This document shows positions 2 to 51,746 of a DNA stretch of 64,000 nucleotides, piece after piece. The translations under genes and the position numbers were made by a program. The notes under the pieces were generated by a model. That model saw nothing but the letters and a program-made list of their open reading frames with translations, was not told the DNA's origin and ran no database searches. The stretch is from Bacteroidota bacterium. GTDB taxonomy: Bacteria > Bacteroidota > Bacteroidia > Palsa-965. Within the stretch, counting starts at the first letter, position 1. The number at the start of each line of letters is the position of its first letter. The stretch spans positions 9,832 to 73,831 of the forward strand of contig JBKDHA010000126.1 of NCBI GenBank assembly GCA_046335555.1. The letters run 5' to 3'.

Positions 2-847
2 GATTCGGCAACTTATCTGAAAAAAATGCTGGGCGTTTTGAAACAAGAAGGTAACCGTATCGACATTACGCTTGGCGATAAAAAGAATTACATCTGGTAT
101 ATGGAATCGCCGCAACTCAAGCAACTGCGCTACTTTCCGTATATCCAGTTTACAGTCATCGGTATTTTTCTGCTCACTGCATATTTCCTCTTCAGCACAT
201 CACGCCGGGCCGAACAAAATCATGTTTGGGTTGGTATGGCCAAAGAAACAGCGCATCAGCTCGGAACGCCGCTTTCATCGCTCATTGCATGGCTTGAGTA
301 TATGAATATGAAAGGCATTGATCCCGAAATCACAATCGAAATCGGACGCGATGTAAAACGTTTGGAGATGATTACCGAACGCTTTTCAAAGATCGGATCG
401 CAACCCAAACTCAAAGCCGAAAACCTTTCCGAAGCACTTGCCGGAGCGGTCGATTATATTCGTGCCCGCTCACCAAAATCTGTTGAATATACTGTAGATA
501 CGGGCAACGATGTTCTTGTTCCGCTCAACATTCCGTTGTTTGCCTGGGTTATCGAAAACCTTTGCCGTAATGCTGTTGATGCAATGGACGGTCGCGGAAG
601 CATTACAGTAAGTGTGCAGGAAGTGCCGGAAAAAGTAATAATTGATATTACTGATTCCGGTAAAGGAATTCCGCGCTCAAAACATAAAACTGTTTTTGAA
701 CCGGGATTTACAACCAAACAGCGCGGCTGGGGACTCGGCCTTTCGCTTTGCAAGCGGATAATTGAAAATTATCACAACGGAAGCATTTTCGTTAAGCGCT
801 CCGAGCCGGGCAAAGGAACTACATTCCGCATTGAACTGAAGCAATAA
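2..847 (+). CDS. Sensor histidine kinase, 5' end truncated by window
   Basis: H-box ETAHQLGTPLSSL, N-box IENLCRNAVDAM, G-boxes DSGKGI and GWGLGLSL; frame is open from base 2. Confidence 0.93.
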   Translation, partial: DSATYLKKMLGVLKQEGNRIDITLGDKKNYIWYMESPQLKQLRYFPYIQFTVIGIFLLTAYFLFSTSRRAEQNHVWVGMAKETAHQLGTPLSSLIAWLEYMNMKGIDPEITIEIGRDVKRLEMITERFSKIGSQPKLKAENLSEALAGAVDYIRARSPKSVEYTVDTGNDVLVPLNIPLFAWVIENLCRNAVDAMDGRGSITVSVQEVPEKVIIDITDSGKGIPRSKHKTVFEPGFTTKQRGWGLGLSLCKRIIENYHNGSIFVKRSEPGKGTTFRIELKQ

Positions 848-1180: not shown

Positions 1181-1216
1181 ATTCCATCTTACAATGCATC
1201 TTACAATACATCCTAC
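1173..1216. repeat. 12-bp tandem repeat CATCTTACA(A/T)TN, 3.7 copies
   Basis: CATCTTACATTC, CATCTTACAATG, CATCTTACAATA, CATCCTAC; the last copy overlaps the dnaG stop codon. Confidence 0.85.
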
Positions 1217-3207
1217 TTCAAAACAATGCGGCCAAGCAGCGAGGAAAAATGTCGTTTGGCATTGAGCAGCTGAAGCTGTTGCTGCATAATCACCATCTGC
1301 TGATCGCTGTCGGCTGTTTCGCGAAGTTGCTTTTGGTTTTCGGCAATCATCTGTTCGAGGCGGCGAAGTTTTAGCACGTTTACACTGTGCACAGCAGCCT
1401 GCCTCAACAACTGACTTTCAGTTTGCACATAAATAAAATGCCGCTCCCAGTCTGAAAGCTGATACGGTATCTGCACAAGATCAACCGCAAGCTGAGAAAC
1501 TTGCTGATCGGGATAATTTACAAAGTAATTGAGATCGGGTACATTCCCGTTGTTGATATGCGTTGTGTACTCGGTCAGAATTTGCTGATAAACCGGATTT
1601 GTAAAAACGATATTATCGGATTCAAGTTCGTGCAGCATCAATTCGGCAAGCGGTACGATTACTTCTATTTCTGTCCCGAACTCATCTTCTGTTTTGGCTG
1701 TAACCGATTCCTGCGCGTAGTTAAGCAGTAAGCGTACTAACTCACGTTCAAAAACTTCGCCGGTTTCAATTTTTGCATGATCGCCTTCACGCGCAGGCTG
1801 ATCGGGCACAAACTCTCCCGTTTCAGGATGCACATCGGGCGGAAGATCGGGAAGCGGTGCATCTTTAATTTTCTGCTCTTCGCTTTTCTTCTCGTAAAGT
1901 TTGCGCCGAAGTTTATTAAGCTCTGTAAGCAGCGTTTGCTCTTCGATATCGAGAATACGGCTGCATTCTTTTACATACACACTCCGCGTAATTGCATCAG
2001 GAATGAGTGCAATACTGTCAACAATTTCGTGAATCAGTCCGGCGCGTTTTATCGGATCATTACCAACATCTGATTTCAGCAATTCTGTTTTAAACTGAAT
2101 AAAATCTTTGGTGTTTGTCCCAATAAAATCGCGAAGCGCTTCTGAAGTAACTTTTTTGGAATAAGAATCGGGATCATCATTATCAGGAAAAAGCAAAACG
2201 CGCACGTTCATACTTTCTTCGAGAATGAGATTGATGCCGCGAAAACTTGCTTTTATACCTGCCGGATCACCATCATACAAAATTGTAATGTTCGTAGTGT
2301 AGCGGCGGATAAGGCGAATCTGTTCTACGGTTAATGAAGTTCCCGACGAAGCCACAACGTTTTCGATTCCGGCCTGATGCATCGAAATAACATCGGTGTA
2401 GCCTTCAACGAGGTAGCATACATCTTCCTGCATAATCGCTTTTTTTGCGAAAAACAGGCCGTAGAGTACATTGCTCTTGTGGTAAATTTCTGTCTCCGGC
2501 GAGTTGATGTACTTCGCCAGTTTCTTATCGGTTTTAAGTGTGCGCCCGCCGAAAGCTATTACACGACCGCTTGCATTATGAACCGGAAAAAGTACACGCC
2601 CTTTAAAACGATCAAAGTACTTTGATGTGTCTTCCTGATTCTGAATGGTAAGTCCTGCTTTTACAAGATAATCGAGCTTGTAGCCTGCGGCAATTGCTGC
2701 ATCTGTAAGATCGCGCCAGGTATCGGGACTATAGCCAAGTTGAAATTTTTCGATGATGTCTTTTCTGAAACCGCGCTCTGTAAAGTAGCTCAGACCGATT
2801 GCCTTACCTTCTTCGGTTTCGTGAAGATTTTTGGTGTAATGTTTTTGAGCGAAATTGCTGACGATAAACAAGCTTTCGCGCTCGTTTTCTTTGGCGGCTT
2901 GTTCGGGGCTTCGCTCCTGCTCTTCAATTTCGATATTGTACTTTTTCGCTAACCAGCGCAACGCTTCGGGATACGAAAGTTGTTCGTGATCCATAACGAA
3001 ATTGACCGGATTACCGCCTTTTCCGCAACCAAAACACTTGTAAATACCGCGAGCCGGCGATACGTTGAACGATGGCGATTTCTCGTTATGAAACGGGCAA
3101 AGCCCTATCATATTTGCACCGCGCTTTTTAAGCGACACAAACTCACCCACAACTTCGTCGATGCGGGCAGTTTCGAGAATACGGTCAACGGTTTCCTTCG
3201 GAATCAT
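1213..3207 (-). CDS. dnaG: DNA primase
   Basis: Zn-binding CPFHNEKSPSF...CFGC, KYINSPET, TOPRIM VEGYTDV and YDGDPAG; start reassigned to MIPKETVDRIL. Confidence 0.98.
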   Translation of the reverse strand: MIPKETVDRILETARIDEVVGEFVSLKKRGANMIGLCPFHNEKSPSFNVSPARGIYKCFGCGKGGNPVNFVMDHEQLSYPEALRWLAKKYNIEIEEQERSPEQAAKENERESLFIVSNFAQKHYTKNLHETEEGKAIGLSYFTERGFRKDIIEKFQLGYSPDTWRDLTDAAIAAGYKLDYLVKAGLTIQNQEDTSKYFDRFKGRVLFPVHNASGRVIAFGGRTLKTDKKLAKYINSPETEIYHKSNVLYGLFFAKKAIMQEDVCYLVEGYTDVISMHQAGIENVVASSGTSLTVEQIRLIRRYTTNITILYDGDPAGIKASFRGINLILEESMNVRVLLFPDNDDPDSYSKKVTSEALRDFIGTNTKDFIQFKTELLKSDVGNDPIKRAGLIHEIVDSIALIPDAITRSVYVKECSRILDIEEQTLLTELNKLRRKLYEKKSEEQKIKDAPLPDLPPDVHPETGEFVPDQPAREGDHAKIETGEVFERELVRLLLNYAQESVTAKTEDEFGTEIEVIVPLAELMLHELESDNIVFTNPVYQQILTEYTTHINNGNVPDLNYFVNYPDQQVSQLAVDLVQIPYQLSDWERHFIYVQTESQLLRQAAVHSVNVLKLRRLEQMIAENQKQLRETADSDQQMVIMQQQLQLLNAKRHFSSLLGRIVLK

Positions 3208-3249
3208 AGCGGCGAATTGCGAAGGTACAAAATGCCGGGCAGGCAATAC

Positions 3250-8612: not shown

Positions 8613-8676
8613 TAACGATCTAACTGATAACGCTTACAAACAGCTAACGATCTAACTAATAACGCTAACAAACAGC
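8613..8676. repeat. 32-bp tandem duplication of the hom 3' end
   Basis: TAACGATCTAACTGATAACGCTTACAAACAGC / TAACGATCTAACTAATAACGCTAACAAACAGC, 2 mismatches. Confidence 0.85.
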
Positions 8677-9872
8677 TTTTGCGAATAGTTATCTCGCAGG
8701 GCATAAAGTGACCTGAACCCAACTTCAGCTATTATAAAGTTCATCCCCGGCGAACGATACTCTTCCTCAATATGGCGAATATCCAGTATTTCGAGTTCCG
8801 CTTTGTCTGCAAAACGAATGTAGAGCCTTAACGTAAAGTCCTTATCCAGCAATGCCGAGAAATCATTCCCCGAAATCCCCTGAGAAGTTCGCAGAGCACG
8901 CAACTTGTTTAGTTTTTTGTAAGCATACTTATAATTGTATGTTAATGCTGAAATATCAGAGAGCACAGCGCTTCCGGTAGGGTGACTTCCTGCACCTTTT
9001 CCTGTAAATGTTTGCTTGCACGAAAAAGCGCCCTCCACCTCTATTCCATTGTACTCATACTGAACCTTGAATAATTCGTCGTCGGCTTTAACAAACTGCG
9101 GCAGCACGTATATGCGGAACTTATCGCCGGCTTTAGCTGCATAGCCTACCAACCTGATCCGTAACCCTTTTTCGCGGGCATAGCGGATGTCATCGAAACT
9201 GATATTCTGAATGCCGAGGTTTAAAACCTCTTCGGGTTTGAGAATTAATCCGAAGGCATGAATACTAAGCAGGCAGGTTTTGTAAAGCGTATCGTATCCT
9301 GCCACATCCGACCACGGATCGGCCTCTGCAAAACCGCTGGCTTGTGCATCACTCAGCACATCACCATAATCGCGGCCTTCCAGTTCCATGCGGGTAAGAA
9401 TATAGTTCGTTGTGCCGTTGAGAATCCCGCGGATGCTGCTCAGCAACTCATTGTCGTAATATTCTTCGAGCGTTCGCACAATAGGAATACTTCCTCCTGC
9501 CGAGCCTTCATAGATCAGCGCGGCTCCGTGCTTTTCCTGAAGTTCGTGCAATTCGCCGAAATACGTAGCCAGCATTTTTTTGCTTGCACTCACCACATTT
9601 ACACCGTTAGCCAATGCCCGACTCACAATAGCATAAGCTTCATCGGTATCGGTAATCATTTCAACAACCACATCTACATCATTACGACTGAGAATATCTT
9701 CTTTGTCGTAAGTAATAAGTGATTGATTAACGGTGCGTTTTTTCGATGGATCTTTCACACAAATGCGGGCAATATCTGCCTGAAATACTTCCGAATGGTT
9801 AAGCACATCATACAATCCCTGGCCTACACAGCCAAATCCGAAAAGTGCTACTGAGAGTTTATCGTTACTCAT
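8652..9872 (-). CDS. hom: Homoserine dehydrogenase
   Basis: GFGCVG nucleotide-binding motif, VVSASK, YEGSAGGSIP, GILNGTTNYIL, GFAEADPWSDVAGYD, GKGAGSHPTGSAV; start MSNDK. Confidence 0.95.
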   Translation of the reverse strand: MSNDKLSVALFGFGCVGQGLYDVLNHSEVFQADIARICVKDPSKKRTVNQSLITYDKEDILSRNDVDVVVEMITDTDEAYAIVSRALANGVNVVSASKKMLATYFGELHELQEKHGAALIYEGSAGGSIPIVRTLEEYYDNELLSSIRGILNGTTNYILTRMELEGRDYGDVLSDAQASGFAEADPWSDVAGYDTLYKTCLLSIHAFGLILKPEEVLNLGIQNISFDDIRYAREKGLRIRLVGYAAKAGDKFRIYVLPQFVKADDELFKVQYEYNGIEVEGAFSCKQTFTGKGAGSHPTGSAVLSDISALTYNYKYAYKKLNKLRALRTSQGISGNDFSALLDKDFTLRLYIRFADKAELEILDIRHIEEEYRSPGMNFIIAEVGFRSLYALRDNYSQKLFVSVIS

Positions 9873-10043
9873 AATTTTTTGAATCGCCCGGCGGAAGCAA
9901 TTTTCAGTTTTAGTTTTTGTTTCATTCCGCCCGCCTGCGGAATGGTGTGTTGAGAAAAAATCTGAGCCGTTGAGCAAACTGCTAAGAGTGTATTGTTTTG
10001 AAATTCCTTGTTTTGTTTTGTTGAACCGATAAGTTGAGACAAT

Positions 10044-10076
10044 AAAAAAAGCCCTCCGGTTTTACCGGGAGGGCTT
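10044..10076 (-). terminator. Attenuator terminator upstream of hom
   Basis: AAGCCCTCCCGGT-AAA-ACCGGAGGGCTTTTTTT, located between the leader ORF and hom. Confidence 0.88.
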
Positions 10077-10103
10077 CGCTCAACACACCAACAATCAACT
10101 ATG

Positions 10104-10202
10104 CTATGACGCAGGTGTTCCCGGATCGATGCAAGAGCAACGACACATATACATGCTTGCGCACATAAATGCTGAACGGGCTGCAGAAATAGCTGGTCTC
10201 AT
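10104..10202 (-). CDS. Putative Met/Cys-rich attenuator leader peptide (32 aa)
   Basis: MRPAISAARSAFMCASMYMCRCSCIDPGTPAS*; 3 internal Met and 4 Cys within 12 codons; its 3' end pairs with the terminator 5' arm. Confidence 0.78.
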   Translation of the reverse strand: MRPAISAARSAFMCASMYMCRCSCIDPGTPAS

Positions 10203-10271
10203 GTTGAAATCTTCTATATCGGGTGTTGCTTCGGTTTGCCGACCAAAAGCAACTGTGTTTCTAATTCATAG

Positions 10272-10279
10272 CAAATATA
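10272..10279 (-). promoter_or_regulatory. Bacteroidota sigma70 -7 element for the hom leader
   Basis: TATATTTG matches TAnnTTTG. Confidence 0.7.
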
Positions 10280-10447
10280 TAGAGGTTTACTATATCTGCA
10301 CATATTTACTGATTATTTTTAAGTTATGGTTCGATATGAAAAGTCAGAAGCGTATTGCCAGATGCCAGTGTTAACAATGCTTTCAGACATACCGAAACAA
10401 GTCTAAATCGTTACAAAAAAATATTATTTTTTTATTTGTCGATACAC

Positions 10448-11143
10448 TTATTTATACTTCGTAAATGTGGCTGCCGGTCTGAACAGTCCTTTCTGCTGAA
10501 GCAATTTGAGTTGAGCGGGAGTAGCTGCAACGATAAAGTAATTGTCGCCCGCATTGCGCCGTGAAAAGGGGGTAACCTGCGAAAAAGTGCCGGCGTTATC
10601 AAAATTTTTGCCTGATTTATCCATCCGTTGAACGATAGCACGTTTTTCATCGCGGGTAAGGCTGGGTACGGCAATGATGAGTTGTTTTTTGCGCACTGAA
10701 ATCTGCATCACTTTCCAGGTCGAAGAATCGGCGCGGGCGCTGAGCCACCAGCTTCCGTTAAATGCTTTGAGAACAGTATCGCGTCCGAGGCGGTAGCGGT
10801 TTAGTGCGCGCGAAACTACGAGCATTGAATCGCCGGTAACGCGTTCTACAGTGCGCGAATCGCCGGCCCGGAAGATGAACTTATTGCCTGAACGCGAAAT
10901 TCCCATGCGTGCTGTATCACTCAGCGGAACGGTGCGGCGCGAGCTTCGGACAAGATCGAGCTGGCGGGGCAGAATGGTTAAGGTATCGGTGCCGCTCACC
11001 CAAATGCCGCGCAATACGGCAGGTGGTTCGGGCAATGCAGCTGTGCCTTGCGGCTGATCGGTTGTAAAACGCACATCACCATCGCACGAAGTTAAAGAGG
11101 CAAACAGCGGAGCTAATAGCAGAATGGAAAGTAAACGAGCCAT
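10448..11143 (-). CDS. Hypothetical lipoprotein
   Basis: Lipobox LTSC at residues 17-20 after a hydrophobic signal. Confidence 0.75.
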   Translation of the reverse strand: MARLLSILLLAPLFASLTSCDGDVRFTTDQPQGTAALPEPPAVLRGIWVSGTDTLTILPRQLDLVRSSRRTVPLSDTARMGISRSGNKFIFRAGDSRTVERVTGDSMLVVSRALNRYRLGRDTVLKAFNGSWWLSARADSSTWKVMQISVRKKQLIIAVPSLTRDEKRAIVQRMDKSGKNFDNAGTFSQVTPFSRRNAGDNYFIVAATPAQLKLLQQKGLFRPAATFTKYK

Positions 11144-39825: not shown

Positions 39826-41312
39826 GATTCTATGGATGTTGCGGGTACGTGATAAGGAAGGTTAACATAAAAACGGCTGCCGCGTCCGGGTTCGCTTTCT
39901 ACTGAAACATCGCCACCGTGTTTAACGGCAACGGCTTTCACATAGCTGAGTCCAAGTCCGAAGCCTTTCACATCGTGAACGTTTCCGGTAGGTACGCGGT
40001 AAAGTTTATCGAAAATCTTTTTCTGATTCTCGCGGCTGATTCCGATGCCGTTGTCTTCAACACAAAGCTGAATACCGGTTGCCGTGTTTTCGGTAATTAC
40101 GCGAATAAGCGGCTGGCCGGGGGTATATTTTATTGCATTGTCGAGCAGGTTGAAAATAAGATTCTGAACATGCGTGCGGTCGGCTTCAATCACAAAACTA
40201 TCAGCTTCAAATTGTGTGCTGATCTCACCTGATTTCTTTTCAACCTGAATGCGGACACTGTTTACGGCATTGCGAATGAGTTCATGAAAATCGACCGGGC
40301 CTGTTTTGAGGCGGAAATTTCCTTTATCAAGCAAGGCCGACTGCAATACATTTTCAACCAATCCGCCGAGACGTTTATTCTCTTCGCGAATCATTGTTAC
40401 ATAACGATTGAGCCTGTCCTGCGTTTTCTCAACTGATGAATCAGAAAGCACTTCGCAGGCTAAAGATATTGTGGAGATGGGCGTTTTCAGCTCATGCGTC
40501 ATATTACTGATGAAATCGTTTTTGATTTCGGAGAGTTGTTTTTGCCGATAAATAGTTGAGATGCTGTAGTAAAAAAGCAGAAGAATAAACAATACAAACA
40601 ACACCGAAAGGATAAGCATGATCCAGAGCGATTTCAGAATAAAACCGTTTTGATACGGAAAGTAAACTGCCAGCATGTGCGGCTGCGCAAAAATATTGTC
40701 GGGCATTAAACTAACGCGATGCCGGCTGGTCAGCAAACTATCGCGCAGCGATTGCTGAGGATCTTCATCGCCGCTGAGTACAGGCACTGTGCCTCCGGTG
40801 AAAATTGTCCATACATAGCGCGTAGTAATTCCCCGGTTGCGGAATTCATATCGCAGCAGCGAATCAATGAGCATTGTATCGGGCTGAATATCATTTTCGC
40901 CGAGGAAATTCACCTGCAGCATTTGATTGTAGAGATCCGAAAAAAGCTCGCCGGCAGGGCGTTTCAGGAGATCGCCGCGTTTTGCCAATGCATCTAAGCC
41001 ACTCTGCAATTTATTCCGGCTGAAGCTGAGTGTATCATTCGGGCTTTCGCTTCCGGGAACAGGTGCATTCAGTTGTCGCGAATTGAAACCCTGTGGCAGA
41101 CGAGGAAGCGAGTATTGTGTGCGCATCCGTTCACGCGCTTGAGCGCGGGCATAGCGGCGGGTAACATTCATCATTGCTTCGCGCACATCCTGCTCAAAAT
41201 GCTCGCGCCGCTGATCTACAGCACCACTGATCCAGTAATACTGAATCACGCAAAGCCCGATAAGCGCTGCGCCCGCAAGAAATGCAATCAGTTTTGGAGA
41301 AACAATTTTCAT
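39822..41312 (-). CDS. rprX: Sensor histidine kinase (RprX-like)
   Basis: Two TM segments; FISNMTHELKTP, NLLDNAIKY, GFGLGLSYV; overlaps rprY; TACCTTTG -7 element at 41337-41344. Confidence 0.88.
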   Translation of the reverse strand: MKIVSPKLIAFLAGAALIGLCVIQYYWISGAVDQRREHFEQDVREAMMNVTRRYARAQARERMRTQYSLPRLPQGFNSRQLNAPVPGSESPNDTLSFSRNKLQSGLDALAKRGDLLKRPAGELFSDLYNQMLQVNFLGENDIQPDTMLIDSLLRYEFRNRGITTRYVWTIFTGGTVPVLSGDEDPQQSLRDSLLTSRHRVSLMPDNIFAQPHMLAVYFPYQNGFILKSLWIMLILSVLFVLFILLLFYYSISTIYRQKQLSEIKNDFISNMTHELKTPISTISLACEVLSDSSVEKTQDRLNRYVTMIREENKRLGGLVENVLQSALLDKGNFRLKTGPVDFHELIRNAVNSVRIQVEKKSGEISTQFEADSFVIEADRTHVQNLIFNLLDNAIKYTPGQPLIRVITENTATGIQLCVEDNGIGISRENQKKIFDKLYRVPTGNVHDVKGFGLGLSYVKAVAVKHGGDVSVESEPGRGSRFYVNLPYHVPATSIES

Positions 41313-41409
41313 ACCCGTGCCTCAATGGCAATCCTCAAAGGTAGCACAGTTCGGGCGTTGAGGATGCTGCCCGGCTATCTGGCTTAACATCATTTAACGA
41401 GTGTACAAC

Positions 41410-42111
41410 TTAAAGCCCTATTTTCTGCCGCTTTTCCTCTACCAGAAACACCCTAAGTGGCGGCAGCTCTATCTCTTTTCCATTCGGACCTTTGGCCTTG
41501 ATGTCGTCAAACATCAGCACACCGCCATTGCCTTTTACATTCAGCGAATCAATTTTCTGCTTCATGCGCGGTGTGAGCGCACTGCCGGTTGACTTCAGCG
41601 TATCCAATTTCCCGGTCTTCGCATTGCGCAGGTATAATGTAAAAGACGTAACCTGATAATTATCTCGCGAAAATTTTTGACGTGCATAAATTCTGCCAGC
41701 ACCTATTACGGTAAACTTATCAATAAATGAATCATTTTTAATACCGCATAAATCGGGTTCGGGCACTTCACGGCCATAAAGTTTATACGTTTTTGACCAG
41801 GCAATACGTTCGGTTCCGTTCTTCAGTTTTTCGTAAACAACCAATACGCCTTCAACGCCGGTTTCCGCTTTTATAATGTAGAACGAATCGCGCTGTGTTA
41901 CAGTCCCACCTTTAAATTCGACCGTTCCGAGTTTATGTTTTCCCTTGTAACGAATCTTCATCACATTATCTTCTCTCAGATAGAGATATGGACGTTCGGG
42001 AGTTACAGTAACAACAGTTGGTGTTCCTTTTACAATAAATGTATCCGTCTGCGCATTCAGCATACGGAAACTTGAAATAGTAAGGAACAAAAAAAGAATG
42101 CGGAGTTTCAT
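41410..42111 (-). CDS. Secreted protein resembling the GldM C-terminal domains
   Basis: Signal peptide; C-terminus YQVTSFTL...GSALT...FDDIKAKGPNG..IELPP recalls the last GldM domain. Confidence 0.6.
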   Translation of the reverse strand: MKLRILFLFLTISSFRMLNAQTDTFIVKGTPTVVTVTPERPYLYLREDNVMKIRYKGKHKLGTVEFKGGTVTQRDSFYIIKAETGVEGVLVVYEKLKNGTERIAWSKTYKLYGREVPEPDLCGIKNDSFIDKFTVIGAGRIYARQKFSRDNYQVTSFTLYLRNAKTGKLDTLKSTGSALTPRMKQKIDSLNVKGNGGVLMFDDIKAKGPNGKEIELPPLRVFLVEEKRQKIGL

Positions 42112-42144
42112 CTTTTGCGGAGTTGACAACTTTTACCAGAATAG

Positions 42145-42178
42145 GGCAAAGTCTGTACCGAAATGTACAGACTTTGCC
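42145..42178. other. Perfect 14-bp hairpin without a U tract
   Basis: GGCAAAGTCTGTAC-CGAAAT-GTACAGACTTTGCC. Confidence 0.7.
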
Positions 42179-42194
42179 GATAATTTATTGTGAG

Positions 42195-42310
42195 CATCTC
42201 TTAAAACTCAAAATCTCTTCGTTAGGCTTGTCGCGAAAATCCTCATTTACGCAAGTAAACTGCGGTTTTCACTCCTGCGCCTGCCTCAATCTTTTGAGTT
42301 TTAAGAGATG
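42195..42310. mobile_element. MITE-like element, 116 bp
   Basis: Perfect 19-bp terminal inverted repeat CATCTCTTAAAACTCAAAA / TTTTGAGTTTTAAGAGATG; inner hairpin TTTAC-GCAA-GTAAA. Confidence 0.82.
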
Positions 42311-42327
42311 TCCTTGCTTCAGCTAAC

Positions 42328-43902
42328 TCAAATTCCAAGTACCGATTTGGTTTGCTCAACAGATGCCAGCACACCTTCATGCACAGTCATGGTAAGTTCT
42401 GCTTTTTTCTTCCCGGCTAAATTATTGAGCGCATCTGCATTGGCAGTAGCCAAATGTCCATCAGGGGTAACCAGCCAAAGCAGATTTTCAACATCAGGAG
42501 TAAACTGGAATGCTGATAGTGCACCAGGCGCGTAAGTGAAAATTGCATTGCGGCCTTTCTCTACTAAAAACACCTGAACGCCTGTAATTTCCTGTTTGTT
42601 GCGGCTGTCGATGATTTTCAAGGCCATTGGTTCGGCTGCCGGAAGATTCGACGGGCAATCAGAATTCCACATTCCGAAGTCTTGAATAACGAACAGCCGC
42701 ATGGTTTGGTTTTCCTGCTTGCGACCCACATTTGCGCGTGAACGAAGTGCTGAAAGACGAAGCGCAAGCGCATTTTCACGAAGCCGCTTTTTATCTGCTT
42801 TGTCAACGGCATTGTCGAGCTGCTGCTGCTTCTGAGTTTCGCTGCCAATTTTTCCGCTGCGTGCGGCTTCGTAAGCGGCAAATCGTTTCTCGTATTCTTT
42901 CATGGCCGATTCATAGTTACGTGTGTCCACAACTACATAAGTAATGTAAGAGCGTTCAATCGTATCGCGGGTAAATGTTACCGTGAGCGTGCGGCCGTCG
43001 CTATTGCGGGCTATCGAAGCATCATCCCACTGAATTTTACGGTCGGCACGGTTGTAAGGTGTGCGGGTTTCGTCAACCTCGAAACGCAAGCCTTTGTAAG
43101 CATTCAGCTCAGGAAACTCAAGCGGATCGAAGTCGATACTGAAGCTGGGGCGTTTGCTGTTGGCCAATTGCGGGCGAACGGGTTCTGCGCCTGCCGGTTT
43201 TGCTTTGGGAACAGTTGTATCAGCCGCAGCGGTTTGTGCTGCCAGCGGATACGCCGTATCACGTTTTACAAAAGCCCAGTTGCGCGCCGTGGTATCGAGG
43301 TAATAGATATTGAACTTATCCTCAGCAGTATTCGAAACCAGCGCCACTTCAATGGGCTTTGCCGGATTGGTTTTGAGCGGCTGTCCGTTCTGCCACGCAG
43401 TTATTTCCAGCATTCCGGCCGATTCAAAATGATACTGTTTACCGGCCGAATCATAGGTCATCGGAATGCCCGCAATGAATATAGAAGCCGGATCATGAAA
43501 CTCGCGGTAGCGGATTTCCACATTTCCTGCAACCGGTTGTCCGCTGCTGTTGAGAAACGCGCCTTGCGGAACAATAATGAGTGATCCGGTGCTGAACCCA
43601 AGCGTATCGGCTTTTCCGGCATCCACCATGTAGGTTGTATCGGCAATATCAACGCCGTTAAGCGGAGCTTGCACAAATGCCGTTTGCTTTTTCAGTTCAG
43701 CTTCATCGGGCGAAAGGGCAATGTATGAACCTACGGCAATCACCGTTCCCAGCACCACAGCACCAATGTAGAAACCCGGCTTTTTGTAGAAGGGCGGTTT
43801 CTGTGCATTGTAAGCATTCAGAAACTGATCAAAATTCTTTCCGCGCTCAATATCTTCGGGTGTAAGCGGCTTGCGGTTTCGGTTAATGTTGTTCGTTTCC
43901 AT
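42328..43902 (-). CDS. Single-pass membrane protein, putative anti-sigma/sensor
   Basis: Short cytoplasmic N-terminus, one TM (FYIGAVVLGTVIAVGSYIAL), large periplasmic part; directly after the ECF sigma gene. Confidence 0.7.
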   Translation of the reverse strand: METNNINRNRKPLTPEDIERGKNFDQFLNAYNAQKPPFYKKPGFYIGAVVLGTVIAVGSYIALSPDEAELKKQTAFVQAPLNGVDIADTTYMVDAGKADTLGFSTGSLIIVPQGAFLNSSGQPVAGNVEIRYREFHDPASIFIAGIPMTYDSAGKQYHFESAGMLEITAWQNGQPLKTNPAKPIEVALVSNTAEDKFNIYYLDTTARNWAFVKRDTAYPLAAQTAAADTTVPKAKPAGAEPVRPQLANSKRPSFSIDFDPLEFPELNAYKGLRFEVDETRTPYNRADRKIQWDDASIARNSDGRTLTVTFTRDTIERSYITYVVVDTRNYESAMKEYEKRFAAYEAARSGKIGSETQKQQQLDNAVDKADKKRLRENALALRLSALRSRANVGRKQENQTMRLFVIQDFGMWNSDCPSNLPAAEPMALKIIDSRNKQEITGVQVFLVEKGRNAIFTYAPGALSAFQFTPDVENLLWLVTPDGHLATANADALNNLAGKKKAELTMTVHEGVLASVEQTKSVLGI

Positions 43903-43907
43903 GATCT

Positions 43908-44480
43908 TCAGGCTAAAGCAGAATAAATTGTTTTCATGCGTTCGAGCAGCCGGTAAATCCGCGCTTTTGCCGCCGCCTCATTAATTTCAAGAATCTCACC
44001 TATTTCTTTGAACGGGCGCTGTTCAAAAAACCGGAGTTCGAGCAAACTCACCTCATCTGCATCGAGCTTTGCAATGGTTTGCATAAGCCGTGCATCGGTT
44101 TCGGCAGTATTGTCTTGCCCCAATTCCTGCAGCACATCGGCCACCTGTGTGTCGTCGATATTTACGGCCTGCCGCACTTTGGCACGGCGGTACTGGCGGC
44201 TCAGTTCGTTGAGCGCAATACGAAACAACCAGGCCGAAAACGGCACTCCCTGCGATTTGTATTTGCCGAGGTTTTCCAGCGCAGTAATAAAAACCTGCTG
44301 GGTCACATCGTACGCATCGTCTTTCGTTTCGGTACGCTGATACACAAACGCCAGTATGCGGGCGTAGTACCTGTTGTAGAGCGGCGCAAAACGGGCCGGA
44401 TTGTCGCGCGCGGCGTTGATTTCGGCTGCTTCAGCCTCAATCTGTTCGCGGGTTTGGTGATAACTTGAAGCGAGGTTCAT
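43908..44480 (-). CDS. ECF sigma-70 factor
   Basis: FAPLYNRYY, DVTQQVFITA, FSAWLFRIALNE, region 4 LRFFEQRPFKEIGEIL. Confidence 0.95.
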   Translation of the reverse strand: MNLASSYHQTREQIEAEAAEINAARDNPARFAPLYNRYYARILAFVYQRTETKDDAYDVTQQVFITALENLGKYKSQGVPFSAWLFRIALNELSRQYRRAKVRQAVNIDDTQVADVLQELGQDNTAETDARLMQTIAKLDADEVSLLELRFFEQRPFKEIGEILEINEAAAKARIYRLLERMKTIYSALA

Positions 44481-44592
44481 GGTGATGCCTTTTGCGGTAG
44501 GAAACAGAACCATTGCGGGCTGCTTTCATCAGCATAGGGTTTTGGGAATGGAAAAGTAACGGGAAGATGCAGAAAAAATCTTCGCCACGCAT

Positions 44593-44624
44593 AAAAGGCT
44601 GCCGGTGTTTCCCGGCAGCCTTTT
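44593..44624 (-). terminator. Terminator of the sulfite reductase operon
   Basis: AAAAGGCTGCCGG-N6-CCGGCAGCCTTTT, bidirectional type. Confidence 0.8.
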
Positions 44625-44646
44625 CAAACAACTCATTATCAGCGCA

Positions 44647-44961
44647 TCACGGTACACAGAGCCTGATCTGCTGCTGCCCCGGTGCCAGCCTGATCTGACA
44701 GGCCAGCCGTGAATTGGTGTACACAACAGGCAGCGTATCCAGCATATTCAGTTCCTCATCGCCGGCCGGGGGCAGCGGGGGCTCCGCTGAAAGGATGCGT
44801 ACATGGCAGGTGGCACACAAGGCCATGCCGCCACACGTTCCTTCTATTCCTTTTATCTCCATGCCTTTGAGCAACTCCATCAGACTAAGCGCGATATTAT
44901 CCGGCACATCAACGCGCTGCAATTCACCCCCGGTTTCTATTTCAACAACAATATCATTCAT
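44647..44961 (-). CDS. 2Fe-2S ferredoxin (adrenodoxin type)
   Basis: CGGMALCATCH...RLACQI. Confidence 0.95.
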   Translation of the reverse strand: MNDIVVEIETGGELQRVDVPDNIALSLMELLKGMEIKGIEGTCGGMALCATCHVRILSAEPPLPPAGDEELNMLDTLPVVYTNSRLACQIRLAPGQQQIRLCVP

Positions 44962-44964
44962 ACG

Positions 44965-45975
44965 TTAAAATGTATTTACACCATTCACTGTGGTGTACTT
45001 CATGGTGTAATGCACACCGGGATTGATGTATTTATAGGCGCTATGGCTCATCATGGCTGCTTCATGAAATCCGCAAAGAATGAGCTTGAGTTTATTTTTG
45101 TACGTGTTGATATCACCAATCGCATAAATCCCTTTTACAGAAGTAGAATAGTCTTCCGGATTTACCACCACGGCCTGCTTCTCAATATCAAGCCCCCAGT
45201 GTGAGGCGGGCCCCAGTTTGGGGCTGAGACCAAAGAGAATAATCAGTTCATCGGCTTCAATATCATGTATGGCCTGTGTATTGAGATTTTTCACACTCAC
45301 CGTACTTAACCGGCCGAGTCCGTTTACATTTTCAACGGATGTATGCAAAAGAAGATTGATTAAACCTGATTCGGCCAATGCTTTTACGCGCTCCGCACTG
45401 TCGGGCACACCTCTGAACTGATCGCTGCGATGCACCAACGTAAGCGAACTGCATACCGAAGCCAGCTGCAGTGTCCAGTCGAGTGCACTGTCGCCACCAC
45501 CAGCAATTACAACTTTCCTGTTTCTGAAATATTCCGGTTCACGCACAAAATAATGTATGCCTTTACCGTTCTCAAATGCATCAAGGCCTTTCACTTCAGG
45601 CTTTCGCGGTTCAAAACAACCCAGTCCGCCCGCAATTACCACGGCCTTTCCCGAAACAACTGTGCCTAAATTTGTTGTAACCTGAAAATTACATTCATCA
45701 ATTTTCTGAATTGTTTCCACACGTTCACCAAGTGTAAAACCGGGTTTAAACGGGGCAGCCTGTTGCAGCAGATTGTCAATTAATTCCTGCGCCAGCACAG
45801 TTGGAAAACCCGGAATATCATAAATTGGTTTCCGGGGATAAATTTCGGAAAGTTGCCCGCCGGGCTGGGGAAGGTAATCGATGAGGTGACATCGCATTTT
45901 CAGCAGTCCGGCTTCAAATACAGCAAACAAGCCTACCGGGCCGGCCCCGATGATGATAAGGTCTGTGGTAATCAT
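44965..45975 (-). CDS. Thioredoxin-reductase-like ferredoxin-NADP reductase
   Basis: IIGAGPVG, YPRKPIYDIPG, GGGDSALDW, GDINTY; no CxxC. Confidence 0.9.
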   Translation of the reverse strand: MITTDLIIIGAGPVGLFAVFEAGLLKMRCHLIDYLPQPGGQLSEIYPRKPIYDIPGFPTVLAQELIDNLLQQAAPFKPGFTLGERVETIQKIDECNFQVTTNLGTVVSGKAVVIAGGLGCFEPRKPEVKGLDAFENGKGIHYFVREPEYFRNRKVVIAGGGDSALDWTLQLASVCSSLTLVHRSDQFRGVPDSAERVKALAESGLINLLLHTSVENVNGLGRLSTVSVKNLNTQAIHDIEADELIILFGLSPKLGPASHWGLDIEKQAVVVNPEDYSTSVKGIYAIGDINTYKNKLKLILCGFHEAAMMSHSAYKYINPGVHYTMKYTTVNGVNTF

Positions 45976-46577
45976 GAACTTTTTTTCTTTTGTGAGGAAA
46001 GTAATCGGGTGAATTGGTTGAGTTGTTTCACCTTATCGGCGAAGTCGCCTTTCAAATAACTGCGTATGGTTTGCAGGTGATTAAGTGATTCGTTGATTTC
46101 TTCGGGGAATGCCTCTTCAAAAATTTCGCGGAGACGTTTAGCCACTGTGGGTGATTTCCCGTTTGTGGAAATAGCAATTTTCACTGCACCTTTTCTCACT
46201 ACTGATCCGAGATAAAAATCACAGAGATCAGGAGTATCAGCTGTATTTACAAGCAGGCCGTGTTGCCTGGCCTGTGTGCGTATTTGTGCACTGGTTTGTA
46301 TGCTGCCCGTAGCAAGAATTACGAGATCTTTTCCTTCCAGATCAGTCGCTTCAAAAGCCCGTTCGATAATCACTACCGCATCAAACCCCTGAGCAATAAG
46401 ACGAAATTCAGGCAATACCGAAATGGCTACTACCGTAACCTGTGCACGGGGCGAATTCTGCAACAATGCAGTAAGTTTTTCGCAGGCTACAAATCCGCCT
46501 CCGACCAGCAGCACGTGTAATTGTTCGAGCTTGAGAAAGACAGGGAAAAGCGGATTGACGGCTTCAATGCTGCTCAT
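45972..46577 (-). CDS. Precorrin-2 dehydrogenase/sirohydrochlorin ferrochelatase (CysG N-terminal/Met8-like)
   Basis: FPVFLKL, VLLVGGGFVA, VNTADTPDLCDF, ISTNGKSP. Confidence 0.92.
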   Translation of the reverse strand: MSSIEAVNPLFPVFLKLEQLHVLLVGGGFVACEKLTALLQNSPRAQVTVVAISVLPEFRLIAQGFDAVVIIERAFEATDLEGKDLVILATGSIQTSAQIRTQARQHGLLVNTADTPDLCDFYLGSVVRKGAVKIAISTNGKSPTVAKRLREIFEEAFPEEINESLNHLQTIRSYLKGDFADKVKQLNQFTRLLSSQKKKSS

Positions 46578-47341
46578 GAGGCAAAACGGGTTAGTTCGTG
46601 CAGCAGTGTTTGCTCCGTAGCGAGCGAAAGTTTATGTTTCACCACTTCACCAATTACAATCACTGCCGGCGAATCATGCGTTTCGGCCAGTGTGGCAAGA
46701 TTTCCCACCACACCGGTACTCACATTTTGCTGCTGCAATGTTCCGTGGCTGATAACGGCTGCAGGAGTGTCGCCGGCACCGGCCTGCCTGTAAACAGAAC
46801 TTATTTCGGCCGCTTTTCCAAGCCCCATGAGTACCACCACAGTAGCTGTTGATCTTGCTGCCAATGTCAGATCGGCCGACAGGGCCGCATTTCCGGTGGT
46901 GGCGGTAATTACCCAGAAACTTTCGCTCACACCGCGTAAGGTAACCGGAATGCCGCAGGTACCTGGAACCGCCACCGCACTGCTCAACCCCGGCACATAG
47001 GCTGTGTGCAATCCATGCGCTGCAGCATATTCAAGCTCTTCGGCTCCGCGTCCAAACACAAACGGATCACCTCCTTTAAGCCGTATAACATGCCCGCAGC
47101 GATGCGCATACGAAACAATCATCCGATTTATTTCCTGTTGCGAATATGTATGGCGTGCCTTGCGTTTCCCCACAAACAGCCTGATGCAATGCGCAGGAAC
47201 AAACTCCAGCAATTCATCACTCACCAATGCATCATACATTAACACATCGGCTGTTTGAATTACACGCAGTGCTTTAAGCGTAATCAGTTCTGCATTTCCC
47301 GGACCAGCGCCCAATACCGTTAACCGTGGTGTTTTATTCAT
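46574..47341 (-). CDS. cobA: Uroporphyrinogen-III C-methyltransferase
   Basis: GAGPGNAELITLKA, YDALV, RLKGGDPFVFGRG; start MNKTPRL. Confidence 0.95.
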   Translation of the reverse strand: MNKTPRLTVLGAGPGNAELITLKALRVIQTADVLMYDALVSDELLEFVPAHCIRLFVGKRKARHTYSQQEINRMIVSYAHRCGHVIRLKGGDPFVFGRGAEELEYAAAHGLHTAYVPGLSSAVAVPGTCGIPVTLRGVSESFWVITATTGNAALSADLTLAARSTATVVVLMGLGKAAEISSVYRQAGAGDTPAAVISHGTLQQQNVSTGVVGNLATLAETHDSPAVIVIGEVVKHKLSLATEQTLLHELTRFAS

Positions 47342-49466
47342 GTCCGGAGGCTTTTTGCGTTGATCTTTCGGCAGCAGCATGTGTTTTCAGCAAATCAATC
47401 CACCCGGTTGCCTGCTCAAGGTAGCGGGCAGCAAACCCGGGTGAGGCGGGCTGCGAATTAAGCTGAAGGATAAATGCACTGAAACTGCCCTGTCCGCTTA
47501 TTTTTCCGGTTTCGATAAATTGTTTTTCAAAATCGCTGATAAGTGCGTGATGGGTATTTACATGATGCCCGTTTTTCAGCAGCAAGGCTTTAGCCGTATG
47601 GATAAGCGCTGAGTAGCTGAAATAAATACTGTCGGCAAAGCGGCTTTCAGCCAATGCTTCGCGGGCTGATAACACTTTCTCATCTGCTTCAAAAAAGAGC
47701 GTTTGCACAAGATCAATCATTACTCCCGCACACTCACCCACACCAATTGCAGTCTGGAATTTTTCATCTGCTCCCCAATCCCTGAATGCTTCATCATCCA
47801 GGTTACTCAGATCTGCCAGCGGTTTCAGCAACTGATAAAAATACTCCTTCCCTTTGCGATGAAAATACGCGGTGAATGTTTCGCCCGGCTGCTTTTCCGA
47901 TTCAAAATCATTAAGCAGTTTGCGTAATGCATCGGGCGCCCGGCGGGAAGGAATTTTTATAATTTTCTCGGCAAGACGACCTGTGCCGTTACCTGTACTT
48001 CCGCCGCCGCCAAGCACCTGCAACGCAGGCACCACCGCATTGCCCGATTTAAACGAACTGCCATGAAATCCGATCGCTGCCAGTCCATGCTGCCCGCATG
48101 AATTCATACAACCACTTATTTTAATATCCAGCTGCCTGTCGAAAAGCAGATGCGGGAAATCGTCTTCAATCACTTCGCCAAGTGCCAGCGCCACGTGTGT
48201 GCTGTTTGAAATAGCCAGATTACAGGTGTCGGTTCCCGGGCATGCAGTAACGTCTGCCGCTGAACCAAACCCCGGCTTTGCAAGACCAGCCGCCAGCAGA
48301 TCAGTGTAAAGCGCCTGCAGCTCGGGCAAGGTTACATAACGCAGCAGCAGTCCCTGATTAATCGTAATACGGGCATCGTCACTGCGCGAGTATTTGTCAA
48401 TACAGTCTGCAAGTTTGCGTGCAGTTCCGGCATGTATATTTCCAAGCGGCACACGCACATATACACCGTAATATCCTTGCTGCTTCTGTTCAAACACATT
48501 CGAGCGCATCCACGCGGAAAAGCCTTCGGGCGGAGTTGCAGGTACAGCAACCGGAGAAGCTTCTCGCACATAAGGCTTTTCAAATTCATCATATGCAATG
48601 TGGTAATCCTGCACGGTAAGCGCCGGCGTTATTTCGTCAAGCAACTGCAGAAATGCATCCACACCAAGCTGATGAATAAGGTATTTTATGCGTGCCTTGT
48701 GCCGGCTGTGCCGCTCGCCGTAACGGTCGAAAATGCGCAGCACCGATTCGATGAAGGGAATTAGTCTGGATGCCGGTAAAAAAGTATGCAGCAGCTTTGC
48801 CGTGAAGGGCTGTGCCCCCAGTCCGCCACCTGCAAGCACACGGAAGCCGCGTTCGCCGGATTCATTGTACGCAGCAATAAAGCCAATATCATGTATCCAT
48901 GTTAATGCGGCATCGGCTTCACTGTTGGAGAATGCAATTTTTATTTTACGTCCCATCTCCTGCGCAAACGGTTTACGCAGAAAGTAGCGGAATACGGCAT
49001 CGGCATAGGCGCTTACATCAAAGGCTTCACCAGGCCATACACCCGATTCGGCCGGCGAAGTAATGTTGCGTACAGTATTTCCGCAGGCTTCACGCAATGT
49101 AATTTCATCCTGTTCAAGCTTTGCCCAGATTTCCGGCGTATGCTCCAGACTGATGTGATGAAGCTGAATATCCTGACGGGTTGTAAAATGCAGATTGCCG
49201 TTTGAGTATTGTTCGCTGAGAGCTGCTATTTTACGTAACTGTGCGGATGAAATTTTTCCAAACGGAATTTTTATCCTCACCATTTGCACACCTTGCTGCC
49301 GTTGACCGTAAACCCCGCGTGCAAGGCGCAGACTTCTGAATTTTTCAGGATCAATAAGCCCTTCACGGAAAGCCTGGATTTTTTTAGCAAGATCAACAAT
49401 GTCTTTTTCAACAAGCACTTTAGTGCCGTGGCTGATGAGTTCGAATTCAGTACGAAAACTCTGCAT
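47334..49466 (-). CDS. Ferredoxin-dependent sulfite/nitrite reductase with C-terminal HEPN-like domain
   Basis: GVYGQRQ, TTRQDIQLH, siroheme/4Fe-4S cysteines ACPGTDTC and SGCMNSC; C-terminal extension ALAESRFADSIYFSYSALIHTAKALL. Confidence 0.92.
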   Translation of the reverse strand: MQSFRTEFELISHGTKVLVEKDIVDLAKKIQAFREGLIDPEKFRSLRLARGVYGQRQQGVQMVRIKIPFGKISSAQLRKIAALSEQYSNGNLHFTTRQDIQLHHISLEHTPEIWAKLEQDEITLREACGNTVRNITSPAESGVWPGEAFDVSAYADAVFRYFLRKPFAQEMGRKIKIAFSNSEADAALTWIHDIGFIAAYNESGERGFRVLAGGGLGAQPFTAKLLHTFLPASRLIPFIESVLRIFDRYGERHSRHKARIKYLIHQLGVDAFLQLLDEITPALTVQDYHIAYDEFEKPYVREASPVAVPATPPEGFSAWMRSNVFEQKQQGYYGVYVRVPLGNIHAGTARKLADCIDKYSRSDDARITINQGLLLRYVTLPELQALYTDLLAAGLAKPGFGSAADVTACPGTDTCNLAISNSTHVALALGEVIEDDFPHLLFDRQLDIKISGCMNSCGQHGLAAIGFHGSSFKSGNAVVPALQVLGGGGSTGNGTGRLAEKIIKIPSRRAPDALRKLLNDFESEKQPGETFTAYFHRKGKEYFYQLLKPLADLSNLDDEAFRDWGADEKFQTAIGVGECAGVMIDLVQTLFFEADEKVLSAREALAESRFADSIYFSYSALIHTAKALLLKNGHHVNTHHALISDFEKQFIETGKISGQGSFSAFILQLNSQPASPGFAARYLEQATGWIDLLKTHAAAERSTQKASGHE

Positions 49467-49473
49467 GGGTAAA

Positions 49474-50346
49474 TCAGGATTTTACAAATTCATAAATGAG
49501 ATGCCAGTCTTCATTGCTCAGTGTAATAGTATGAGCACTTGCCGCATTGCGAATGCGTTGCAGATCAAGACTACCGATAATTGGCAGGGCCTGCAGCTTG
49601 TAAAGCCATGCCACAGCCACCTGCTCTACATTGGCCGAATAACGTTCTGCAATTTCGGCAAGCAATGAGCGGATTGCTGTAGTACGCGCATCGGTACCTG
49701 TTAAAATCCGTCCCCCGGCCAGCGGCGCAAGTGCAAGCGGTTTGCTGTACTGCTCACGGATCAGATCAAGACGACCATCGCGTATGGCATCCGTTTGAAG
49801 TACACTCAGCTCGATATGATTTGTGACTACCGGAATACTCAAATGAGCAGAAAGCAGTTTATGCTGAAACACATTGAAATTTGATAAACCGATGTAATGA
49901 ATTTTTCTTTTCAATACCAGATCGGTAAGTACGGATGCCGTTTCTTCAGCATTGAACAAGGGATCAAAATCATGCAGCAACAATACATCTACATAATCCG
50001 TTCCCAGGTTTTTGAGCAACTGGTCAACCGTGCTGCGGATCGATTCCTGACTCAGATCGGCGTATAGTTTACCGCTGTGTTTGTTTTTCTGCCATCCCGC
50101 GCGAGCTGCAATAACAACATCTTCACGCTGCACTGCACCGGTTTTGATCAGCTTACCAAAACTCTTCTCCACCTGTTCTGTCCCGTTTGGATTATTCAGA
50201 TCAAATGAAGTGATTCCCAGTTGCTGGCACTCTTCCACAACGGAAGTAAGTAAATCCGTATCCTGCAATTCCTGCTCCCAGCGCCAGAAGCCATATATAG
50301 CCGCTGAAACTTCCGGCCCTGATTCGCTTAATAGATGTTTTTCCAT
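49474..50346 (-). CDS. Aldo/keto reductase (YdhF-like)
   Basis: YGFWRW, LGTDYVDVLLLH, IGLSNF, NHIELS, PLAGG; start MEKHLL. Confidence 0.88.
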   Translation of the reverse strand: MEKHLLSESGPEVSAAIYGFWRWEQELQDTDLLTSVVEECQQLGITSFDLNNPNGTEQVEKSFGKLIKTGAVQREDVVIAARAGWQKNKHSGKLYADLSQESIRSTVDQLLKNLGTDYVDVLLLHDFDPLFNAEETASVLTDLVLKRKIHYIGLSNFNVFQHKLLSAHLSIPVVTNHIELSVLQTDAIRDGRLDLIREQYSKPLALAPLAGGRILTGTDARTTAIRSLLAEIAERYSANVEQVAVAWLYKLQALPIIGSLDLQRIRNAASAHTITLSNEDWHLIYEFVKS

Positions 50347-50371
50347 TGTTGTTTCTATACTATTATTAAAT

Positions 50372-50403: not shown

Positions 50404-50434
50404 AACTGTATTGGTTGAATACGAACACAATCCG

Positions 50435-50494: not shown

Positions 50495-50501
50495 TCGGGT
50501 G

Positions 50502-51720: not shown

Positions 51721-51746
51721 GCGAAAGCTTGAAGTTCCGGCTTTAC

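Follow-up and report, generated by a model that had tools for sequence, protein, structure and literature searches.

Known leader systems and the leader upstream of hom

Methionine (Met) genes are thought to be controlled by S-adenosylmethionine (SAM) riboswitches, T-boxes or repressors, and, to our knowledge, the catalogue of amino acids sensed by attenuation (Trp, His, Leu, Thr, Phe and Ile/Val) does not contain methionine. Here, we analyzed a 64-kb stretch of contig JBKDHA010000126.1 from a Bacteroidota bacterium (hereafter the window) and, within it, the leader of hom, the gene of homoserine dehydrogenase (Hom), an enzyme that feeds Met synthesis. The leader unit at 10044-10304 was designated W; all its features lie on the minus strand, and coordinates are those of the window. 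On our reading, W gates hom as a transcription attenuator of the ribosome-mediated, leader-peptide type; we give this reading a probability of about 0.8. The observations behind it are the sequence elements, their alternative pairings, the covariation within a family of such units, the conservation of the leader and a short RNA from the locus.

The classical attenuators (trpL, hisL, leuL, thrL, pheL and ilvL; Yanofsky) resemble W in having a promoter-proximal short open reading frame (ORF) with clustered codons for the pathway product. They also share with it the pairing of segments 1:2, the 2:3 antiterminator and the 3:4 terminator, an arrangement in which a ribosome that reaches the stop codon favors termination and a stalled one favors read-through. 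Unlike in the classical systems, the clustered codons of W are those of Met and cysteine (Cys) together, the host belongs to the Bacteroidota, the promoter is of the TAnnTTTG type, and the start context is without a Shine-Dalgarno sequence. W shows no sequence or covariance-model likeness to the Rfam leader families, and most of its sister units, described below, differ from the classical design in having three segments and a predicted default ON state in the absence of translation.

The amino acids for which a 2013 survey lists attenuators are His, Leu, Thr and Trp, together with Ile/Val and Phe, and no others (PMC3766115). The closest systems in theme are actinobacterial. For Actinobacteria, polycysteine leader ORFs located 5′ of cys operons were proposed to sense cysteine via translation (Seliverstov et al. 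2005, PMC1262725), and in mycobacteria, cysteine sensing by translation of a polycysteine leader ORF has been shown (Canestrari et al., bioRxiv 10.1101/834739). The actinobacterial elements are Cys-only and without recognizable intrinsic terminators or antiterminators (PMC1262725). Like W, these leaders consist of a short ORF with Cys runs near the stop codon, placed before sulfur-assimilation or cysteine genes; unlike them, W has a canonical terminator and antiterminator, mixes Met with Cys and would control hom.

In the same phylum, the Bacteroid-trp leader (RF01692), which Weinberg et al. reportedly described in 2010, is said to be a predicted leader-peptide attenuator with Trp codons before trp genes. 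The mechanism is thus in use in the Bacteroidota; W differs from this leader in codons and target and gave no cmscan match to it at E ≤ 10. The SAM-I riboswitch (RF00162), which senses SAM directly through its aptamer, occupies the same operon 5′-leader position before orthologous hom genes in Bacteroidales and Mucilaginibacter, whereas W has no aptamer. A full-text literature search, with subscription journals outside its scope, found no published description of a methionine leader peptide. The mechanism is known, and the Met/Cys specificity appears to be new.

A Met/Cys-rich leader ORF between promoter and terminator

The elements of W are listed in Table 1. An earlier note, made from the letters of the window alone, had marked the sequence at 10272-10279, here read as the promoter box, and a 32-aa ORF at 10202-10104, and direct reading of the sequence found both coordinates to be right. 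The GC-rich terminator with T7 that it had described at 10076-10044, GCCCTCCCGG-TAAAA-CCGGAGGGC, was likewise present, and its assignment of the downstream gene as hom was borne out by the Pfam domains PF00742 and PF03447. A weak -33-like TATGTG lies at 10304-10299, 19-21 nt 5′ of the promoter box. The hairpin in the 5′ untranslated region (UTR) is lineage-specific; between it and the leader ORF runs an A/U-rich stretch that is predicted to be unpaired, with an A at -3.

The Met and Cys codons of the leader ORF are concentrated to a degree found nowhere else in the window: the 12-codon stretch MCASMYMCRCSC contains 7 of them, and none of the other stop-free windows of that length (81,924 in all six frames) does so. 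The antiterminator and terminator helices that follow are mutually exclusive, 7 nt of the terminator 5′ arm being common to both. From the terminator to the hom ATG at 9872 there are 171 nt, and reading of this interval found no TAnnTTTG box. Because the gene 3′ of hom encodes a PAS/LuxR regulator, hom is effectively monocistronic here. W therefore presents what a leader-peptide attenuator is made of, namely an ORF between promoter and hom on the same strand, a Met/Cys codon cluster, a terminator and an antiterminator that excludes it.

Table 1. Features of W, of the second unit of the window (W2) and of the sister units at other hom loci (L numbers). Positions of W and W2 are window coordinates.
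Unit	Feature	Position	Strand	Sequence or content	Evidence or downstream genes
W	promoter	10272-10304	-	perfect Bacteroidota -7 box TAnnTTTG = TATATTTG at 10279-10272	
W	5′-UTR hairpin	10225-10253	-	GTTGCTTTTGG/CCGAAGCAAC	RNA folding; inside metatranscriptome contig
W	leader ORF	10104-10202	-	32 codons + TAG, ATG start; MRPAISAARSAFMCASMYMCRCSCIDPGTPAS, then stop	direct reading, ORF list
W	regulatory codon cluster	10131-10166	-	codons 13-24: Met13, Cys14, Met17, Met19, Cys20, Cys22, Cys24	
W	segment 1	10177-10184	-	GCAGCCCG, codons 7-9	can pair with antiterminator arm (CGGG, CUGC) if ribosome absent
W	segment 2 (antiterminator 5′ arm)	10114-10124	-	CCGGGAACACC, within leader codons 27-30	folding, MAFFT
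W	segment 3	10065-10089	-	GGTGT 10089-10085 + TCCCGG 10070-10065	pairs with segment 2; TCCCGG alternatively with terminator 3′ arm
W	intrinsic terminator	10044-10076	-	AAGCCCTCCCGG-TAAAA-CCGGAGGGCTT + T7	-18.5 kcal/mol
W	hom, presumed regulated gene	8652-9872	-	406-aa stand-alone homoserine dehydrogenase	Pfam PF00742 8.8e-50, PF03447
W	leader RNA contig	10077-10254	no strand information	178 nt, 100% identical	freshwater (lake) metatranscriptome X25
W2	second Met/Cys unit, promoter	50372-50534	-	TTTG 50534-50531, N21, then box TACATTTG 50509-50502	
W2	leader ORF	50435-50494	-	MKHKHMPAFCSTCCMRNRQ, then stop	sequence reading
W2	antiterminator arm	50431-50442	-	GGCAATAGCGGA, spanning stop codon	pairs with TCCGCATTGCC of terminator
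W2	terminator	50372-50402	-		sequence reading, folding
L002	leader			MNSQLFPTNKMLHFCMQVMLV	HAD-hom
L012	leader			..HMMMCCMCIVN	cysH-hom
L020	leader			MCCMVCV	hom
L022	leader			..AMYCMMMRF	hom
L030	leader			..CHSKCCTCCMLY	hom, beyond ~400-nt spacer
L031	leader			..STMMCCMMCF	TauE-cysH-hom
L090	two tandem units	465-771		own terminator each	cysH-hom
L106	leader			..STMMCSMMCF	hom

Ribosome position and folding of the nascent leader

At equilibrium, the complete leader always formed the terminator. Since the equilibrium fold of the complete leader is uninformative for a kinetic switch, the nascent RNA from 10264 to 10061, i.e., up to the terminator loop, was folded with ribosome-position constraints. 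Before the terminator 3′ arm is made, the minimum free energy (MFE) fold, at -19.4 kcal/mol, joined CCGGGA (10124-10119) to TCCCGG (10070-10065) and ACACC (10118-10114) to GGTGT (10089-10085), and these are exactly the antiterminator pairings that the earlier note had drawn. In the naked nascent RNA, the MFE fold paired the arm (CGGG, CUGC) with segment 1, and the probability of the antiterminator was 0.33. Placing the ribosomal A site at Met13 or Cys14 raised this probability to 0.97-1.0, and placing it at Cys22 gave 0.95. With the ribosome at Cys24 or at the stop codon, the antiterminator probability was 0. The claim of the earlier note that a stall at the upstream Met codons leaves the antiterminator free, while a ribosome at Cys24 or the stop covers it, was thus reproduced at Met13, Cys24 and the stop; Met17 and Met19 are taken up below. 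In silico, a stall is predicted to free the antiterminator and a stop-proximal ribosome to block it, and W would follow the four-segment logic of Yanofsky.

A family of Met/Cys leader units

The comparison set comprised 160 Hom-anchored loci, drawn equally from species-representative genomes and metagenomes (80 each). The earlier note had proposed comparing Met/Cys codons across upstream regions, and on doing so the Met/Cys run was found to recur in 10 independent units of this design, in related uncultured Bacteroidota. The units are W (with a near-identical copy in L001), L002, L012, L020, L022, L030, L031, L090 (two), L106 and the second unit of the window, W2. Every one is on the hom strand and stands 5′ of hom, cysH-hom, TauE-cysH-hom, HAD-hom or a sulfite-reductase operon, and each comprises, within ~120-230 nt, a promoter box, then a short ORF that contains a Met/Cys run, an antiterminator arm and a terminator. 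The sister-unit promoters, TTTG-N~21-TAnnTTTG, are in the same place, and the Met/Cys run of these units is near the end of the ORF. Their 5′ UTRs leave a few to ~25 nt before the ATG, with L020 (~70 nt) as the exception, and the start context is A-rich, with an A at -3 in 9/11 units. In most of the more distant relatives, hom sits in an operon behind cysH (phosphoadenosine phosphosulfate reductase) or a HAD hydrolase and the short gap is empty; leaders of the same design turn up wherever such a transcription unit begins. The two tandem units of L090 would be a serial attenuator.

The unit peptides are 7-32 residues long and have nothing in common beyond the Met/Cys run. All 11 units contain both Met and Cys codons, and among the 242 residues of their peptides, non-initiator Met accounts for 13.6% and Cys for 13.2%. 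Over all loci, the hom strand had 75 eight-codon windows containing 5 or more Met/Cys codons, and the other strand had 12. The run keeps its distance from the switch: counted from the first base of the codon in question, the antiterminator arm starts 7-16 nt past the last Met/Cys codon of the run and 20-44 nt past the first internal one. In 7/11 units, the stop codon lies 2-7 nt 5′ of a GGAARGC arm that is complementary to the terminator 5′ half GGCTTTCC; in W and the second unit of L090 (L090b), unlike the others, the ORF runs through the arm and stops beyond it. MAFFT aligned the arm of W with the GGAAGGC arms of its sisters and its terminator with theirs, and L002 has CCGGGAAGG and CCGGTAAAAC in common with W. 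Supportively, a structure-first scan, in which ORFs were ignored and a terminator had to be preceded by an arm complementary to it, gave 19 sites; a small ORF ended at the arm in 13 of them, and 11 of these 13, all on the hom strand, had at least 4 Met/Cys codons.

The arms vary between units (GCCCTCCCGG, GACTTTCCGG, GGGCTTTTCC, GCCTTTCAG, CCCTTCCGC and others), and each antiterminator arm tracks its own terminator. Summed over the family, the cognate antiterminator/terminator duplexes reached -169.5 kcal/mol versus -134.4 ± 8.4 kcal/mol on average when re-paired, and none of 7,437 derangements attained the cognate value. The sister units followed the trend of W on folding: sequestration of the terminator 5′ arm was 0.58-0.99 at most Met/Cys codons of the run and 0.04-0.68 with the ribosome at the stop. 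A few codons, located early in the run (L022) or beside the arm (W2 and the tail of L090b), gave 0.09-0.36. Eight of the 11 units are without segment 1; these have three segments and are predicted from folding to be ON when untranslated.

W2 precedes an operon at 49474-44647 that encodes an aldo-keto reductase, sulfite reductase, uroporphyrin-III methyltransferase, siroheme synthase, a flavoprotein reductase and a 2Fe-2S ferredoxin. With W before hom and W2 before the sulfite-reductase operon, the same genome appears to gate both sulfide supply and the homoserine branch by Met/Cys leaders.

Conservation of the leader and a short leader RNA

The one close relative is L001, whose Hom is 97% identical to that of the window and which has the same leader; a metagenome search with Hom found no relative closer than 77%. 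The two leader peptides differ by two substitutions, F12S and A15V, both at non-regulatory codons. Over the leader ORF and switch, 2/157 positions differ between W and L001, compared with 62/311 in the flanking non-coding sequence (Fisher p = 4e-10) and ~9% in hom, and the terminator is 100% identical. In the 5′ hairpin of L001, the change of G10232 to A turns a U-G into a U-A pair, and a bulged base is also changed. A haplotype from a lake metagenome, X18, gave a similar picture, with 1/236 differences in 10044-10279 versus 16/339 in the non-coding flanks (p = 0.002); the one change in its leader falls on the wobble position of the same hairpin, 10232. The Met/Cys codon cluster is invariant in L001 and in the strain variants X18, X32, X36 and X37. 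This pattern points to purifying selection on the leader.

The leader was also found as RNA in the freshwater metatranscriptome X25 (Table 1). Its one contig on 1-20000 of the window is the leader contig, and there is none on 40001-60000; the W2 leader at 50.4 kb is not in X25. The contig starts ~10 nt past the expected start site, ends at the foot of the terminator hairpin and does not extend into hom. An accumulating, prematurely terminated leader RNA would look like this. Wastewater runs labeled as RNA (X26-X28) were set aside as not independent evidence; they hold adapter-flanked fragments with identical ends at 10078/80-10194.

Riboswitch and Rfam searches

The earlier note had proposed cmscan as the way to exclude a SAM riboswitch. 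Scanning 9600-10800 at E ≤ 10 returned no SAM or other riboswitch family, so that this exclusion held, and no SAM family of Rfam (SAM-I, -II, -III, -IV, -V, SAM/SAH and others) reached its gathering score in the window. The same models do pick up SAM-I in the hom loci L039, L040, L042 and L055; because SAM-I is detected in these more distant loci, the negative result at W is meaningful. Neither W nor its sister units matched any Rfam family at gathering score. The best cmscan matches near W, at ~18 bits, were to Bacteroides small RNA (sRNA) models with gathering scores of 82-105 and were driven by the terminator. Among the Rfam amino-acid leaders (Trp, His, Leu, Thr, Phe and Bacteroid-trp), only Phe_leader gave a match, at 18.2 bits versus a gathering score of 55 and on the opposite strand.

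In L039:1383-1580, L042:364-560, L055:202-440 and ~45 further loci, SAM-I is followed within ~20 nt by a conserved Met/Cys-rich ORF, MNSIHLTHNNFIMPLMPMCMCR in Bacteroidales and ...ADCMCMCCCCC in Mucilaginibacter, located 5′ of the hom operon, the first gene of which we take to be metY. The Bacteroidales examples have no obvious T-tract terminator after the ORF. SAM-I and the Met/Cys ORF may together be a tandem of a SAM sensor and a charged-tRNA sensor.

Proposed mechanism and sensed signal

In the mechanism that we propose for W, the start of transcription would lie a few bases past the TATATTTG box. With ample Met-tRNA and Cys-tRNA, the ribosome would cross the antiterminator arm and arrive at the stop codon, the terminator would form, and a ~220-nt leader RNA would be released (OFF). 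If one of the two charged tRNAs ran short, the lead ribosome would stall at codons 13-22, masking or separating segment 1 and leaving the arm free; the free arm would then capture the terminator 5′ half, and RNA polymerase would read on into hom (ON).

The earlier note regarded Met as the more likely signal, which does not follow from the geometry: Cys14 is as permissive as Met13. The sensed signal is more likely both sulfur amino acids, Met and Cys, because the lead ribosome halts at the first hungry codon and Cys14 adjoins Met13 in the permissive zone, because every unit mixes Met and Cys, and because the family also controls cysH and sulfite-reductase operons.

Weighing of the attenuator reading and its alternatives

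Several points tell against reading W as an attenuator, or limit how far that reading reaches. With the A site at Met17, Met19 or Cys20, equilibrium folding gave antiterminator probabilities of only 0.07-0.52; these values are intermediate because RNAfold lets segment 1 pair across the ribosome. The antiterminator duplex of W alone was no better than shuffled controls (fraction 0.35). Translation of the ORF, stalling on it and Met/Cys-dependent read-through are things that we only infer from the sequence. Shortage of Met also limits the initiator tRNA, which complicates a pure Met sensor. Only three haplotypes of W are available, the W, X18 and L001 types (X35-X37 being the L001-type strain again), and with these near-identical sequences, covariation specific to W is minimal; the family case rests on analogous, loosely homologous units. 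The X25 contig, finally, carries no strand and stops ~30 nt short of the T-tract, assembly trims contig ends, and a trans-acting sRNA would likewise give a short abundant RNA.

It is very unlikely, on the whole, that W is such an sRNA gene, independent of hom and with its own promoter and terminator, the ORF being incidental and hom transcribed separately or by leaky read-through. A discrete, comparatively abundant RNA of at least 178 nt does fit the promoter-to-terminator interval, the sequence is very well conserved, and there is a sub-threshold likeness to Bacteroides sRNA models (18.7 bits versus a gathering score of 105, over the terminator only). Yet, for all their differences in sequence, the units always stand directly 5′ of hom or a sulfur-assimilation operon and in its orientation, and what is conserved across them is codon class and spacing to the antiterminator rather than a seed, the switch arms alone being in common. 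Moreover, no TAnnTTTG box lies between the terminator and hom, and the mutually exclusive helices covary. Another alternative is an attenuator in which a ligand (a riboswitch for SAM, Met or a related metabolite) or an RNA-binding protein selects one of the two helices without involvement of the ORF. The SAM-I riboswitches in the orthologous hom operons of Bacteroidales and Mucilaginibacter and the extra conserved 5′ hairpin of W speak for such control; nevertheless, we consider it highly improbable, given that no riboswitch family matches and that the Met/Cys run is the sole feature common to all units 5′ of the arm. Several units, L030, L031, L106 and W2 among them, have little beyond the ORF 5′ of the arm, with a 5′ UTR of a few to ~17 nt, and therefore no room for a conserved aptamer.

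Two further alternatives assign the role to the peptide. Cys-rich small peptides exist, and this precedent, together with an ORF that is intact in all strains and whose only two substitutions are non-synonymous and spare the Met/Cys residues, would suit a functional Cys/Met-rich micropeptide (metal-binding, redox or a ribosomally synthesized and post-translationally modified peptide precursor) with its own terminator instead of a regulatory leader. We regard this as a remote prospect: peptides of 7-32 aa with only the Met/Cys run in common make up the family, the position of the stop codon is constrained relative to an RNA arm (2-7 nt before it in 7/11 units), no maturation or export genes are adjacent, and the ORF overlaps a switchable terminator. 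The least probable account is arrest by the nascent peptide, in which a small molecule such as SAM or Met, rather than tRNA charging, makes the Met/Cys-rich sequence stall the ribosome, as with TnaC and Trp or plant CGS1 and SAM. The same RNA geometry would serve it, and motifs such as MMCCMMCF recur in several units, but arrest needs conserved exit-tunnel residues, whereas the peptides of the units are free to differ in length and sequence, one of them having only 7 codons. The sign would also be wrong, as arrest by an abundant end product would switch the pathway ON. Against these alternatives, the claim of the earlier note that W is a leader-peptide attenuator was sustained by the absence of an Rfam match, the family with covarying arms, the conserved leader and the discrete leader RNA.

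Neighboring features

Some further observations were made around the locus. A candidate ORF of 81 aa on the opposite (+) strand, at 10129-10374, was rejected; it has no Pfam match, and a frameshift breaks it in L001. Between the terminator and hom, in the 5′ UTR of the gene, lies a hairpin, CATTCCGC-AGGCGG-GCGGAATG (9923-9944, minus strand). Two of its pairs differ in L001, T-A being C-G and C-G being T-A there, and these compensatory changes preserve the hairpin. TTCCGCC, nearby at ~9896-9890, could alternatively pair with GGCGGAA, and this arrangement may be a second, translational layer of control. The L001 contig (record CALRTD020000194.1) is filed under a Synechococcus metagenome-assembled genome; it is probably mis-binned, because its Hom is 97% identical to that of the window and because the window encodes a Por_Secre_tail domain (type IX secretion system sorting), typical of Bacteroidota.

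Elsewhere in the window, ~3 tandem copies of an ~80-87-nt unit occupy 900-1210 on the minus strand, flanked on one side by dnaG (1213-3246) and on the other by a histidine kinase gene. The repeat has two hairpins with the same loop, GCATCCGG-TTTGTAA-CCGGATG and GAATTCAG-TTTGTAA-CTGAATTC, and looks like a REP-like (repetitive extragenic palindromic) intergenic element. The sole Rfam match at gathering score in the window is a DUF3800-VI RNA (RF02915) at 61777-61830 on the minus strand (44.5 bits), unrelated to the leader.

Implications for sulfur amino acid regulation in Bacteroidota

Whether W is one member of a Bacteroidota-wide, translation-coupled sulfur-amino-acid regulon, and these the first natural attenuators to read Met with Cys codons, we judge to be evenly poised. 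If so, this large and ecologically dominant phylum would directly read charged Met-tRNA and Cys-tRNA, by leaders that stand alone in some lineages (before hom and sulfite reductase) while elsewhere the Met/Cys ORF follows SAM-I. The default-ON units would be opened both by scarce initiator Met-tRNA and by stalling at internal Met/Cys codons, and this would remove the objection that the initiation of a Met-sensing leader itself needs Met. The absence of riboswitches from many met and cys operons of Bacteroidota would be explained, and the combination of a TAnnTTTG box with a short ORF bearing a run of Met/Cys codons, an arm of the form GGAARGC and a GGCTTTCC terminator would provide a simple annotation signature for sulfur regulons in uncultured genomes.

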